64,000 nucleotides of DNA from Octopus vulgaris (GCA_951406725.2 OX597819.1:80786001-80850000), one strand, 5' to 3'; shown: positions 15,729 through 64,000, counted from the first letter of the stretch. Notes: generated by a model not told the origin, from the sequence alone. Program-made: numbers and translations.

Positions 15729-15993
15729 AATTGCAGCGTGGAAGGTGTTTGTAAGCCATTTAAGAAACACAAAAGCCGTTCGATTCACTTCCACATTTAA
15801 GTTTAATTTGTCAAAATATTTTCGTCGCTTTAAGACCGCGACCTGTTCACTGACAAAAATCCATGCCATTGAACAGGTCGTGGTCTTAAAGCGACGAAAA
15901 TATTTTGACAAATTAAACTTAAATGTTGAAGTGAATGGAACGGCTTTTGTGTGTTTCTTAAATGGCTTACAAACACCTTCCACACTGCAATTG
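15729..15993. mobile_element. fold-back element (inferred inverted Penelope-type pLTR pair) with a hammerhead motif in each arm
   Basis: About 122-bp arms that are near-perfect reverse complements around a spacer of about 20 nt. Confidence 0.8.
15807..15857 (-). ncRNA. minimal type I hammerhead ribozyme motif, G3-C8 variant
   Basis: UUUGUCA-GUGAACA-G-GUCGC(ggucuuaaa)GCGAC-GAAA-AUAU-UU-UGACAAA: 7-bp stem I, 5-bp stem II, palindromic stem III. Confidence 0.7.
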
Positions 15994-16077
15994 TTTTCGT
16001 TTCAGCACATGATCTCAGATCAAATCACTTGCTATGCAAGTACATCTCCGTATTTATAATTGTTATCTATTTATCAG

Positions 16078-16390
16078 ATCTACAACATTTGCGTACAGCT
16101 AGTATTAGTCTGGACGTTGGAGAAACATGGCCTGTTATTAATGTACGTGTGAACAGCAAATATGAAGAGGATGATGCTGCGCTGGAAGAAGAAAAGCCTG
16201 ATTTGCAGAGAAAAAATTCAAAACCTCAGAGTCCAAAAGATAACACAGATGAAAAACTACTAATTCAATTCAAAAATCGACCAGCTAGTATCAGCCAAGC
16301 AGAAGAAATTACTGCAAGTAAAATAAAGTCTTCAAATAAGAAAGTATACACTTCTGATTCTTCTGCTGAGGAGACAAGAGATACATCAAA
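16078..16390 (+). CDS. HPS4: HPS4 coding exon (disordered linker); donor position uncertain
   Basis: tttatcag| phase-1 start DLQHLRTASISLDVGETWPVINV...EETRDTS. Donor AA|gtagag is phase-compatible with acceptor 17429; alternative donors after 16317 or 16395. Confidence 0.75.
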
Positions 16391-16818
16391 GTAGAGTATG
16401 CCTTTCTGTTTTATTTATTTTCATTTATCATTATTTGTTCATTGCTATTTAATGTTTGGTTTTTCCAAGTTAGCATGGGTTGGGGTGGATAGTAACATAT
16501 TCCAGGTAGATTTTACTGCTGAAAGGTTTTTCTCATACCTGTCTGAATGATCTTCTATAGAACCTAGCTGATCAAAGAGTCTGCAGAAGTTCGCCATTAC
16601 CTTCTGCCAGAGCCACGTGGAACTTAGGTGTTTCGCTCATAAACACAAACATCACCCGGTCTGAGATTCGAACCTGCGATACCTCGACTGCGAGTCTGCT
16701 GCTCTAACCACTAGGCCATGTGCCTCCACATATGTATATATGTGTATGTAAAACAATTTTCGTTCGTAATGAGATAAAAAAACCAAGGCTGTGTAGATTT
16801 TAGATCATTTATAGATAG

Positions 16819-16866
16819 GTCTTACAGCTGTTTCCAGGATATTTATTATATCCCTTCATTGGAGAC
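16819..16866 (-). ncRNA. degenerate hammerhead motif (pLTR fragment)
   Basis: GUCU-CCAAUGA-AGGGAUAU(aauaa)AUAUCCUG-GAAA-CAGCUG-UA-AGAC; core mutated from CUGAUGA. Confidence 0.5.
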
Positions 16867-17428
16867 AGTGTGAGAGAATGATTAAGTAATAGTTGATTTA
16901 GATAAGATACAAAGAGAGTGAGGTGGAGGAAAGAAACTAGATGTGAGATATGTAGGGATATTGTATTTATAGATCCAAATTTTTTAGGCAGAATGGTTTA
17001 TGTATAAGATTCCAATACCTTATGAGTAAAATCCAATAGTATATAAAATTGGTCATTCTAAGTATAGAGTTTATACACAGTGTTATTGAATCAAGGGTTT
17101 TATATATATATATATATATATATATATATATATATATATACACATACATATGTGCGTGTGTATATATATATATATTTACACATACATATGTATATATGCA
17201 TATATATATATATATATATATATACACATATATATACATACATATGTATATATGTGTGTGTGTGTATGCATGTGTATATATATATATGTATATTTATTCT
17301 TATGTTTATATATATGTATGTATATGTGGGACTATTTTTGTCTGTGTATATGTATGCATTAGAAAGAATAGTTGTTTAATGATAATATATTTTTTTCTTT
17401 TCGTGTGAATGGTTTCTTTTCCATGTAG

Positions 17429-17681
17429 TGCCCTAGCTGCAGACGGTTGTTCATTAAATGATGAAAATGCCATGTATGGCTCCATGTTGTCCCTTTTGTC
17501 AAAGCAAAGTGGAAAGAACAGTATCAAACCAGCATTCGTTCCAAAGCCAAGTCTGCCTGAATGTTCTACTTGTATCGGAGATGAATGTGACTTGATTCTC
17601 TATGTGCAGAATAACTCTGAGAGCTCTTCTATGTTATTGATGGAGCCTTCTGTTTGTAACATGGAGATGATACAGACATTG
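17429..17681 (+). CDS. HPS4: HPS4 coding exon (start of third longin domain)
   Basis: ttttccatgtag|...TTG|gtaagt. ECDLILYVQNNSESSSMLLMEP, cf. HPS4 [21 protein letters not shown]. Alternative acceptors at 17437 and 17443. Confidence 0.85.
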
Positions 17682-60913: not shown

Positions 60914-61040
60914 AGACTATAGAGTGCAGTACTACAGGTGCAGTGAGTGTAACCATGCATGGCTTTGATGCCTCGTTGTGCATTCAGTCAGCCATTTGTG
61001 ACTGTATGCACAACCGGAGTACAAATCCGTGTTTACTTTA
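60914..61040 (+). CDS. possible exon of an unidentified second gene
   Basis: tttgtatctag|...|gtaagt; one frame open throughout, with ACCATG at 60952-60957: MHGFDASLCIQSAICDCMHNRSTNPCLL. No homology recognised. Confidence 0.3.
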
Positions 61041-61180
61041 GTAAGTACGTATGTGTCCTTAAATACTGTTTGCACACAATAGCACTACCACTGACCTGAC
61101 CTTGGTGCTTTACTATTTAAGTACCTGCTTCTCTTGAAAACCGGAAATATATATATATATATATATATATATATATATAT

Positions 61181-61520
61181 ACGTCCCCTCCCCAATTCAA
61201 GATCACAGCATACATGTACACTGCAACATAATTTCTTTTCCTCAACAGGCCCTGCCCTATTTAACATTGTCCCGAAAGAGATCAAAGAGGAAAAGGATCC
61301 CATCAACTTTAAACGAAGTCTGGATAGATTCCCTCAAGGAATACCAGATAAGCCACCCATAATTGGATACAACTCACCCAACAAAAACTTACTACTTGAA
61401 TGGACCATAAACAAAACTTGATCTAAACAGCATTCAAATAATCCTATCAGGTGGTGCTATTAACTTAAACATGGCCTGGACCAATCATTGGTCGAAACAT
61501 ATCTAAGTTTATATAAGTTT
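61181..61520 (+). mobile_element. CR1-like LINE 3' end (same family as 55528-56090)
   Basis: RPLPNSRSQHTCTLQHNFFSSTGPALFNIVPKEIKE; same tail; begins at a (TA)n tract. Confidence 0.85.
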
Positions 61521-61532
61521 ATATATGTATAA

Positions 61533-62007
61533 ACTAAGCTAAGACTCTACTCCCTGGAGAGAAGACGGGAGAGGTATGCAGTAATATATATCTGGAAGAT
61601 CCTGGAAACAATTGTGCCAAATTTTGGCATTATAAGCTACACCAATGCTAGAACGGGACGACACTGCATAGTGCCAAATATCCCAGCAATGCCATCACGC
61701 TTCAGGACCAGCTTCTGCAACAGTCTGGGTTTCAAGGGCCCACAGCTTTTTAATATTCTCCCAAAGAGTCCGAGGAACTTGCACAAAGTAGATGTAGCGG
61801 TTTTTAAATCAAAGCTGGACATCTTCCTGTCAAGAGTCCCAGATGAACCTACCTCACGGCAAGAGGTGTAAATGAGAGTAGCTATATCAAACTCCATTCT
61901 TCACCAAGTGCCACATATTAGAGGAGGTTCTTCGTAATAACAGTGTAGCACAAAACGGCGGTGCATCAGCATGGCCGCAGCTCTGAGCTGAAACTAGAAA
62001 AAAAAAT
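61533..62007 (+). mobile_element. second CR1-like LINE family, 3' end
   Basis: LRLYSLERRRERYAVIYIWKILE...FKGPQLFNILP...FKSKLDIFLSRVPDEP; stem-loop tail then A tract. Confidence 0.85.
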
Positions 62008-62323
62008 ACATATATATATATATTATATATATATATATACATATACATATATATATATATAAAATATATATATATATATATATATATATAAAATATATAT
62101 ATATATACATATATATATATATACAAACACATATATATATATATATACATATATATATATATATATATATATATACATATATATATATATATATATATAT
62201 ATATATATATATATATATATATATATATATATATATATATATATATATATATATATATATATATATATATATATATATATATATATATATATATATATAT
62301 ATATATATATATATACATATATA
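62008..62323. repeat. long (TA)n microsatellite
   Basis: Direct reading. Confidence 0.95.
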
Positions 62324-64000
62324 GAAAATAGCAAAAAGTGAAAAAACTACAGAAGGCTTGTTTTAAAAGGTTAAAAAATATATATTTGAGTCAATATGTC
62401 TGAAGAATGTTATCAATTTTTTTCTTACAATGACATAGTTTAGAAGAAATGACCGGCTTCGCGTTCAGCTTCTCAAATTTCTTGCATCGTTATGTTTATG
62501 TTGAGAATTAAAACCCATGAAAAGGAACTAACAACCAAAGAGATTGACTTTCTAACAAACTTTAAATGCAAACCTAGCCTCTTCTATGGTCTACCAAAAA
62601 TTCATAAAAGCCAAATTATAAATGAAACCATTAAAAAATCACCAAAGACATACATACACACACCTAACCCGGGGAACCTAAAACTACGACCCATTGTAGC
62701 TGGCCCAACCTGTGAAACATACAGACTAAGTCTATTTATGGACATCCTCCTGAAACCCTTCCTTAAACATATCGATAGCCATATCAGAGATGACTTATAT
62801 ATGTTAAACCACCTCCCAAAAAAAAGCCAAGGAAGAAACAATCCTGGTTTCATTTGATGTAGTTAACTTGTATACCAGTATACCTCATAATTATGGACTA
62901 GAGGCAATACAGTTCTGGCTGGACCAATTTCCGGAAGAAATACCAAAAAGGATCAGTAAAGAATTCATTACTAAATCAATTGAATTCATCCTACATAATA
63001 ACCACTTCATGTTTGACAATACATTTTACCGTCAAAAATCCGGAATTGCTATGGGTACAAGGGCAGCACCAGTCATTGCGAATCTAACAATGGGCTACCT
63101 GGAAATAATCATTTACCAGGAATCTTTATCAATCTTTGGAACCCCCTCTCTCAATACATAAAAGAGAATTGGAAACGATTCCTGGACGATTGTTTTATAC
63201 TCTGGAATGAAAACACAGATAAACTCCTACAATTTAAAAACCTATTGAACAGCATAAACCCAAATATACAGTTCACAATGGAATACAACCAAAAGGAGCT
63301 CCCATTCTTGGATATACTAATTAAAAAAATTAACCTTAAAATAGAAACAGACATTTTTTACAAAGCCACAGACGCCAAACAATACCTTCTTTTTAATTCA
63401 TGCCACCCAAGACACACTAAAACAAACATCCCCTTCAACCTTGCAAGAAGGATATGCACAATAGTGTCAGAACAAAATACCAGGAACTTTAGACTGCAAG
63501 AACTCAAAAACACCCTAATTGACAGACATTACCCAGCTCAACTCATAGAGGATGGGATCAGACGTGCAACAGAAATCAACATAGAAACTTTAAGAAAAGT
63601 TCAACACAACAACACACCTTCCCCGAAAATACTACCTTACATATCCACATACAACCCCAGAAACAAAGAAGCCTTCACTATTATCACCCAGAATTTACCA
63701 ATACTTCATAAGGACCCCAAATTAAAGGAAATTCTAAACATACACCAAATCATTAAAAGCTACAAACAACCTAAATCACTTAAAAAGATTCTCACAAAGG
63801 CAAAATTGTTTTCTGAAATTACGGATGCAAAAGTAAAAAAATGTGGTAGATCGAACTGGGCAACATGTCCAAACCTGCTAGAAGGATCAGAATTCCTCTT
63901 CAAAGAGGGACAGAAATTCAAGATCAAATCTAACTTTACTTGTGCTTCTGAAAACATAATTTATGTCATAAAATGCTCGGGCTGCCACCAAGACTACGTG
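62324..64000 (+). mobile_element. 5'-truncated Penelope-like retroelement (RT plus start of GIY-YIG), runs off the window
   Basis: FYGLPKIHK, LRPIVAG, SFDVVNLYTSIPH, GIAMGTRAAP, WKRFLDDCF, LPFLDILI, NSCHPRH, FTCASENIIYVIKCSGCPQDYV; frameshifts near 62825 and 63145; inverted pLTR at about 62324-62505. Confidence 0.93.
62444..62483 (-). ncRNA. minimal hammerhead motif (U3-A8 variant) in the inverted pLTR of a Penelope element
   Basis: AAGAAAU-UUGAGAA-GC(ugaac)GC-GAAG-CCGG-UC-AUUUCUU; 7-bp stem I; GAAA changed to GAAG. Confidence 0.65.

Follow-up and report, generated by a model that had tools for sequence, protein, structure and literature searches.

Minimal type I hammerhead ribozymes are known from the pseudo-long terminal repeats (pseudo-LTRs) of metazoan Penelope-like elements (PLEs), where they are weakly active and cut as dimers (Cervera and de la Pena 2014, PMC4209133). 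They combine a short stem I, an extra base after A9, a G10.1-C11.1 pair and a palindromic stem III of the AUAU, CGCG or GGCC type, and occur as many families per genome, mostly in solo copies or in opposite-strand pairs 100-700 bp apart; the U3-A8 variant is natural as well, with about 1,300 in Schistosoma. We analyzed a window of 64,000 nucleotides from the 2.8-Gb genome of Octopus vulgaris (G000:C6:80786001-80850000), for which an earlier note had proposed at least five unrelated families of motifs with this architecture. The motifs share the features listed above, and we consider it likely that they are minimal type I PLE hammerheads residing in PLE terminal repeats and in short elements without open reading frames (ORFs) that are moved by PLE enzymes, that they would cut as palindrome-paired dimers, and that they tolerate any Watson-Crick pair between positions 3 and 8.

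Much of this is already in print, and the newness claimed in the earlier note does not hold as framed: the class, the architecture with its extra base, the U3-A8 pair and the solo and opposite-strand copies are in PMC4209133, and non-autonomous PLE-derived hammerhead elements have been proposed (PMC7229834, bioRxiv 10.64898/2026.07.22.740005). The differences lie in the core. All 56 rows of Fig. S3 in PMC4209133, which has no cephalopod row and represents molluscs by Lottia and Crassostrea, are CUGA or UUGA, whereas the Octopus families include G3-C8, A3-U8 and C4. The searchable text of PMC3088659, PMC8495972 and PMC3884650 does not give G3-C8 or A3-U8 as natural, and the C4 known from one natural viroid variant (U4C; PMC3088659) is here the majority state of whole families. 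Natural G3-C8, natural A3-U8 and family-level C4 are thus apparently new, the searchable literature holding only laboratory mutants and the one viroid variant; most subscription papers and Lünse 2017 lie outside that coverage. To go by its title, the latter work (Lünse, Weinberg and Breaker, RNA Biol 14:1499) reportedly concerns numerous small PLE-associated hammerhead variants that cleave as dimers, and G3-C8, A3-U8 or C4 may already be among them.

The window is rich in AT and in simple repeats. A strict type I descriptor, which admits every Watson-Crick combination at 3-8 and, optionally, one base after A9, matched it twice, at 15807-15857 (-) and 40944-40990 (+), whereas 30 dinucleotide shuffles averaged 0.1 matches; tolerating one core mismatch brings in 62444-62483 (-). 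The descriptor used for the genome sample, which left positions 3 and 8 unconstrained and allowed U or C at position 4, was applied to 120 evenly spaced 10-kb stretches (1.2 Mb, from contigs C1-C5 and C7-C20 only) and returned 21 matches, compared to a mean of 0.9 (range 0-2) in eight shuffles. The large population that the earlier note envisaged is thereby borne out, the hit rate being far from that of shuffled sequence; extrapolation to the whole genome gives roughly 47,000 motifs, although copies cluster and several matches represent one family. Despite both positions being free, the 3-8 pair is Watson-Crick in 20 of the 21 motifs: C-G in nine (four of them with C4), U-A in eight and G-C in three, the remaining motif being C-A. 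The CUGANGA core is present in five, so that a search restricted to it misses the other 16, as had been predicted, and eight fit neither CUGANGA nor UUGANAA.

Within the window, the five sites named in the earlier note are labelled A (15807), E (16819), B (40944), C (52467) and D (62444); their coordinates and those of associated features are given in the table below. The surroundings of the five are unrelated at the DNA level, the longest cross-match being 10 nt, which upholds the claim of unrelated families for A, B, D and E, all multi-copy, but not for C, which matches only itself. First-look searches gave 2,437 candidates for A, 831 for B, 3,512 for E, 1,889 for D and one for C; these are not copy numbers, and the family locus searches score the best 40 candidates. 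Hammerheads from different families could not be aligned with MAFFT, and an Rfam scan of the window (E<=5) had no hammerhead among the matches listed (150 of 155). Covariation inside families mostly reflects decay after insertion and was not taken as proof, with the exception of the split in family F described below.

Table. Hammerhead motifs and associated features in the Octopus vulgaris window (positions counted from its first nucleotide)
Feature	Position	Strand	Basis
12-bp target-site duplication, left copy (right copy 16051-16062)	15722..15733	+	flank comparison
Family A fold-back insertion, two head-to-head arms	15734..16050		arm comparison
Family A hammerhead motif, intact	15807..15857	-	descriptor, folding, family alignment
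Family E element copy, approximate ends	16757..17104	-	locus comparison
Family E hammerhead motif with G5 lost to decay (CCAAUGA); CAGCUG palindrome; stem II closed atypically	16819..16866	-	family alignment
Family B fold-back, arms 77% alike	40656..41159		arm comparison
Second family B copy, broken at A9 and G12, palindrome CUGUACAG	40830..40874	-	folding, comparison
Family B hammerhead copy, CUGAGGA core, decayed stem II and palindrome CUAUAUAG	40944..40990	+	descriptor, family alignment
Lone hammerhead-like relic, C3-G8, doubtful member	52467..52510	-	folding, genome search
Family D hammerhead motif, U3-A8, CCGG, A15.1G, inside inverted pseudo-LTR (~62323-62510)	62444..62483	-	descriptor, family alignment
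5'-truncated Penelope-like reverse transcriptase to GIY-YIG frame, three pieces, two frameshifts	62511..64000	+	reverse transcriptase motifs, Pfam, Atlas

The family majorities conform to the PLE type to different degrees. Those of A, D and F carry the core N3 U4 G5 A6 N7 N8 A9 ... G12 A13 A14 A15.1-U16.1 H17, from which B and E depart by C4. Stem I and a stem II with G10.1-C11.1 are found in A, B, D and F; E has stem I and an atypical closure of stem II. A very short palindromic stem III is present in the family majorities (AUAU, CCGUACGG, CAGCUG and CCGG).

The connection to PLEs is direct in family D, which, as the earlier note had it, is attached to a Penelope reverse transcriptase (RT). 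The frame in the window has RT motifs and an RVT_1 match (E=1.4e-4) under the curated cut-off; its look-alikes in the Atlas score 0.95-0.96, a minority of the members having HTH_animal and GIY-YIG. Pfam had nothing for two of the three frames of the element and 11 other window frames, and a PDB sequence search gave no match. The endonuclease motif is IIYVIKC..C...YVG, and the linker between RT and endonuclease reads CGRPNCATC in most D copies, with one C changed to W in the window copy. Such a cysteine (CxxC-type) linker is a mark of Neptune and Nematis (PMC8557442). Beyond the end of the window, the element extends to a direct 3' repeat that contains a hammerhead and a ~40-nt tail (locus L091); it is set in (TA)n. 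Thus, family D has the organization of endonuclease-containing (EN+) PLEs, namely an RT followed by a C-terminal GIY-YIG domain and a pseudo-LTR with a hammerhead, an inverted 5' copy and a one-sided tail. The U3-A8 pair and the CCGG palindrome reported for the 62444 motif stand, but this copy carries a mutation: position 15.1 is A in 21 of 22 distinct copies, the window copy being the one with G. A D hammerhead with an intact core lies just outside the window, in the 3' repeat (L091 ~3396-3432).

Family F, found outside the window from the second G3-C8 motif of the sample (L262), where the hammerhead stands behind an endonuclease fragment, has RT or endonuclease matches upstream in 10 of 12 loci, ~45-70% identical to the D protein. 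The D and F motifs lie 130-210 nt behind the GIY-YIG frame and have in common the CCGG palindrome and a 2-3-bp stem II, and both families fit the EN+ PLEs of Neptune/Nematis type, with RT, cysteine linker and GIY-YIG in this order (PMC8557442). One F hammerhead, at L312:1575-1635, was noted ~200 nt behind a GIY-YIG frame. A family F pattern left free at positions 3 and 8 had 90 matches in the genome, 83 of them Watson-Crick: A-U 75 and G-C 8, with G-U, A-C and A-G twice each and U-C once. The association between the two positions has p=9e-8 under independence of the copies, which does not hold. Family F consists of two subfamilies set apart by a double change, A3-U8 and G3-C8; because the copies are not independent, the counts point to one or more compensated switches in a source element and do not amount to eight. 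All four Watson-Crick 3-8 pairs therefore occur at the family level in this genome. The three pairs of the earlier note (G-C, C-G and U-A) are all seen but were an undercount, A-U being added by family F, and the C4 cores had been missed.

These C4 cores characterize families B and E. The majority of family B has the core CCGAGGA and the palindrome CCGUACGG, with C at position 4 in 14 of 23 copies (T in eight, a gap in one) and C/T 14/9 and G/A 14/9 at two palindrome positions. The palindromes CUGUACAG and CUAUAUAG of the two window copies would be the expected products of CpG decay of CCGUACGG, so that of the original description of the 40944 motif the C3-G8 pair holds, the palindrome given being a decayed form. 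Two loci of family B have a ~355-365-nt period, in partial tandems only. In family E, with the core CCGAUGA, position 4 is C in 26 of 29 copies and position 5 is A in seven, a CpG pattern from which we infer that C4 is ancestral; the decay and the palindrome noted earlier at 16819 are both confirmed against this family form. C4 was met only together with C3-G8. Two further C4 families were observed at L252 (-) ~7150, L265, L280:533 and L230:7624: one has a CCGACGA core with a 2-nt stem III and 12 copies in 1.2 Mb, and the other a CCGAUGA core with a CCAUGG palindrome, a 360-nt period and an inverted copy.

Family A represents the other setting of the motifs, a ~210-nt element with a sharp 5' limit and no ORF. 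The intact motif in the window has G3 (15850) paired with C8 (15845), an extra G after A9, a 5-bp stem II, the AUAU palindrome, a 7-bp stem I and a UU site, with the predicted cut between 15814 and 15813; an 18-mer containing its core has 6,996 exact matches genome-wide (reversed control, 0). The pair and palindrome named in the earlier note are confirmed here. A compensatory 3-8 subfamily was also sought within family A: 52 places are changed at both positions, and no such subfamily turned up among the eight inspected, which were decayed A copies (five) or other repeats (three). In the window fold-back, the short inverted arm (~15734-15866) terminates at a CAATTG site, and the tail-bearing arm (~15869-16050) has its hammerhead cut off at position 3. 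The fold-back directly precedes a 154-codon stop-to-stop frame (15930-16394, +) with an acceptor-like TTTATCAG near 16070-16078 and no Pfam match, which may be a terminal exon; the intact hammerhead is on the opposite strand.

To characterize the insertions, 65 family A loci were collected, and removal of eight duplicates left 57. Two best-match searches contributed 56 loci, the first favouring fold-backs and the second tail-bearing copies, and five came from the even sample, two of these perhaps being one duplicated segment. The set comprises 36 fold-backs and 21 one-orientation copies. Among the latter, 16 (the reference included) begin no later than nucleotide 5 of the reference, the other five beginning further in; no upstream DNA is common to the 21. 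Copies terminate 3' at one or the other of two preferred positions ~60 nt apart. Among the 36 fold-backs, the tail is on one arm in 32 and on both arms in none, and the 26 retrieved with a tail-less query behave alike (one arm in 22, both in none). Junctions are variable, with 33 distinct ones among the 36, and the arms are unequal. Non-simple direct repeats of at least 9 nt flank 21 of the 57 insertions (12-13 nt in 18 cases), compared to 0.18 for shuffled flanks; 18 further insertions sit in simple repeats, where a duplication cannot be told. The AT content of the flanks (82%) exceeds that of the sample (64%).

Inverted 5'-truncated repeats, one-sided tails, (TA)n or AT-rich targets and short target duplications (8-10 bp) are the insertion signature of EN+ PLEs (PMC8557442, PMC3846280). 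In family A this signature is carried by an element without genes, the duplications being 12-13 bp and the tail ~60 nt compared to the reported 30-40 nt. No ORF, defined ends and PLE insertion marks are what a PLE-dependent non-autonomous element would have, and for family A the ORF-less solo and fold-back units of the earlier note are thereby supported. Its enzyme donor was not found, no homology being detected to the 39 PLE loci compared, where the two clear matches were A-family sequence inside two D loci.

Non-LTR retrozymes, short ORF-less hammerhead elements for which PLE enzymes have likewise been proposed, are a further point of comparison. They consist of tandem units with mostly canonical hammerheads and form circular RNAs, whereas copies of family A are scattered, have defined limits and mostly stand alone or in fold-backs, with an array at only one of the 57 loci. 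This array (L043:97-1690) has nine units with a ~173-nt period and lies in an apparent intron; its units include a TA-rich spacer, unlike non-LTR retrozymes, and it is probably a local expansion. Contigs of four presumed-RNA runs cover family A without readable ends or circular joints, their RNA origin being uncertain. Family B, family H (a 362-nt tandem with U3-A8) and family I (360 nt) do resemble retrozymes. The H array, at L209:7601-8400, has a 362-363-nt unit with a U3-A8 hammerhead and a CGCG palindrome per unit; there are seven copies in the 1.2-Mb sample. No tRNA gene, as expected for a tRNA-derived short interspersed element, was found in six loci of A, B and E, in a test that a decayed tRNA head would escape.

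These observations can be accommodated in a single scheme. Selection on the source elements would keep a 3-8 pair while its letters change; residue 8 acts chemically through its 2'-OH and not its base. This 2'-OH is essential, and C3G partly rescues G8C (PMC8495972). Two RNAs would join via the stem III palindrome and so complete the ribozyme. The PLE RT-endonuclease, which A, B and E would borrow, would nick both strands ~12-13 bp apart and initiate at one or the other of two positions close to the 3' end; in a fold-back, each nick would prime one complementary DNA (cDNA), and the two would be joined at their 5'-truncated ends. One PLE protein has been found in vitro to nick and extend both strands at AT-rich DNA and to start at two internal sites that define the tail; it is a predicted dimer, assists its hammerhead, uses uncut RNA, and belongs to an element whose hammerhead partly cleaves as a C3G/G8C double mutant (PMC11167929). 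Since copies of family A span the cut site, the copied RNA would have been uncut or re-ligated.

Several points weigh against this scheme. Cutting by the variant cores is a prediction from sequence. G3-C8 is only partly active as a laboratory mutant (PMC11167929, PMC8495972), U4C lowers activity (PMC3088659), and eight of nine frog retrozymes tested did not cut (bioRxiv 10.64898/2026.07.22.740005). In PMC11167929, no reads ended at the cut site and insertion in vitro was independent of cleavage. Of the window copies named, only 15807 is intact, the other four being damaged. Single-strand folding z-scores are weak (-2.7 to +0.6); co-folding of two copies gave favourable energies for each of the five motifs examined (-2.9 to -11.8 kcal/mol), but the lowest-energy dimer of A, D and F is other than the hammerhead fold. 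As the copies of a family stem from few sources, their numbers cannot be read as independent events. Family A has no sequence link to the PLE loci with which it was compared, and inverted junctions of PLEs are taken as self-priming in PMC3846280.

The last point defines the alternative that survives best, namely that fold-backs arise by self-priming on an antisense template and not from two cDNAs started at two nicks. We regard this as possible, if not the favoured origin: head-to-head palindromic junctions are common in PLEs and are so interpreted in PMC3846280, and the two observations that fit two nicks, i.e. the diversity of the family A junctions with both arms independently 5'-truncated, and the nicking and extension of both strands by one PLE protein in vitro (PMC11167929), are compatible with self-priming too.

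A second alternative, rather unlikely in our estimate, is that the fold is kept for another role, for example RNA dimerization or binding of the PLE protein, the variant cores being weak or dead ribozymes. Copies that span the cut site, insertion that was unchanged by hammerhead mutations, the lack of cut ends in RNA-seq (PMC11167929) and the success of several families with changes that slow cleavage (C4, G3-C8) are all as such a role would predict. However, the 3-8 pair that is kept in nearly all sampled motifs forms in the active conformation (PMC3884650), and the family majorities also keep GA, A9, GAAA and the UH site. Moreover, in the majorities of A, D, F and H the residues at 3 and 17 are in no case Watson-Crick complements (the combinations are G3/U17, A3 or G3/A17, and U3/C17). 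This is in line with the elements avoiding the inactive 3-17 trap of PMC3884650, albeit with low power given the few families. Conservation for cutting remains the reading that we prefer.

It is unlikely, too, that the ORF-less copies are nothing but 5'-truncated 3' ends of autonomous PLEs. PLE copies usually are 5'-truncated (PMC8557442, PMC4209133), and the searches score only the best 40 candidates. Family E may be either a mini-element or a truncated long element: its 5' ends vary, and one pair of copies stays alike as far as 369 nt upstream of the query, so that this part of the earlier claim is not secured for E. Against truncation stand the sharp 5' limit of family A with no common upstream DNA, its ORF matches at four loci (three distinct insertions) that all come from neighbouring elements, compared to ORF matches at 22 of 30 family D loci, the ~360-nt repeat period of family B, and the lack of an ORF match in all 25 loci of E. 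Finally, miniature inverted-repeat transposable elements (MITEs) or foldback DNA transposons with incidental motifs, or chance motif matches, are a very improbable source, largely refuted for A, B, D and E: family A fold-backs do resemble long terminal inverted repeats, but 21 of 57 insertions are one-armed, arms are unequal and junctions vary, in place of equal repeats with fixed ends, and motif matches are ~20-fold over shuffles.

Chance is a live option for site 52467 alone. The CUGAUGA core, a 4-bp stem II, GAAA and UACAUGUA are present as originally described; however, a G follows the palindrome in place of U16.1, and stem I has at most 2 bp. A 131-nt stretch around the site matches only itself in the genome, so that no family is demonstrated there; a broader genome search yielded just a flanking repeat, and the 14 genome matches of its stem II pattern (control, 0) include none with flanks in common with 52467. 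By its sequence, this site may be either a chance match or a deeply decayed motif.

Among other observations, a short CCACG stands near the 3' end in A (window ~15980-15990, +), F (L262 ~6915), D (L091 ~3558) and G (L252, -, ~7225); it may serve in protein binding or as a start signal, or be there by chance. The window also contains fold-backs or inverted pairs at 156-292, 35326-36094, 55414-55597, 44956-45204/48090-48338 and 55661-55868/61179-61386, in which the hammerhead scan found no motif.

If the preferred reading is extended, PLE hammerheads of this lineage would switch freely among the four 3-8 pairs while active; family A would be a linear ~210-nt parasite of PLEs without a tandem array or circle; and the palindrome would pair two RNAs and hand them to a dimeric RT-endonuclease, each nicked strand priming one cDNA and each subunit using one start site. 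We offer this extension as doubtful speculation; palindrome-paired RNAs on a dimeric enzyme would account for the one-sided tail and inverted repeat that PLEs generally have. What the hammerhead does in PLE transposition is still an open question in the literature consulted. The thousands of young, short and fully bounded insertions of family A make nick spacing, start-site use and fold-back formation readable, and the element is a 210-nt template for in vitro work. Natural G3-C8 and A3-U8, both present as subfamilies of one PLE, provide a ready test of 3-8 variability in a working ribozyme. Hammerhead searches in genomes require a CUGANGA or UUGANAA core, and, given the share of sampled motifs that lie outside both patterns, published hammerhead counts are likely low.

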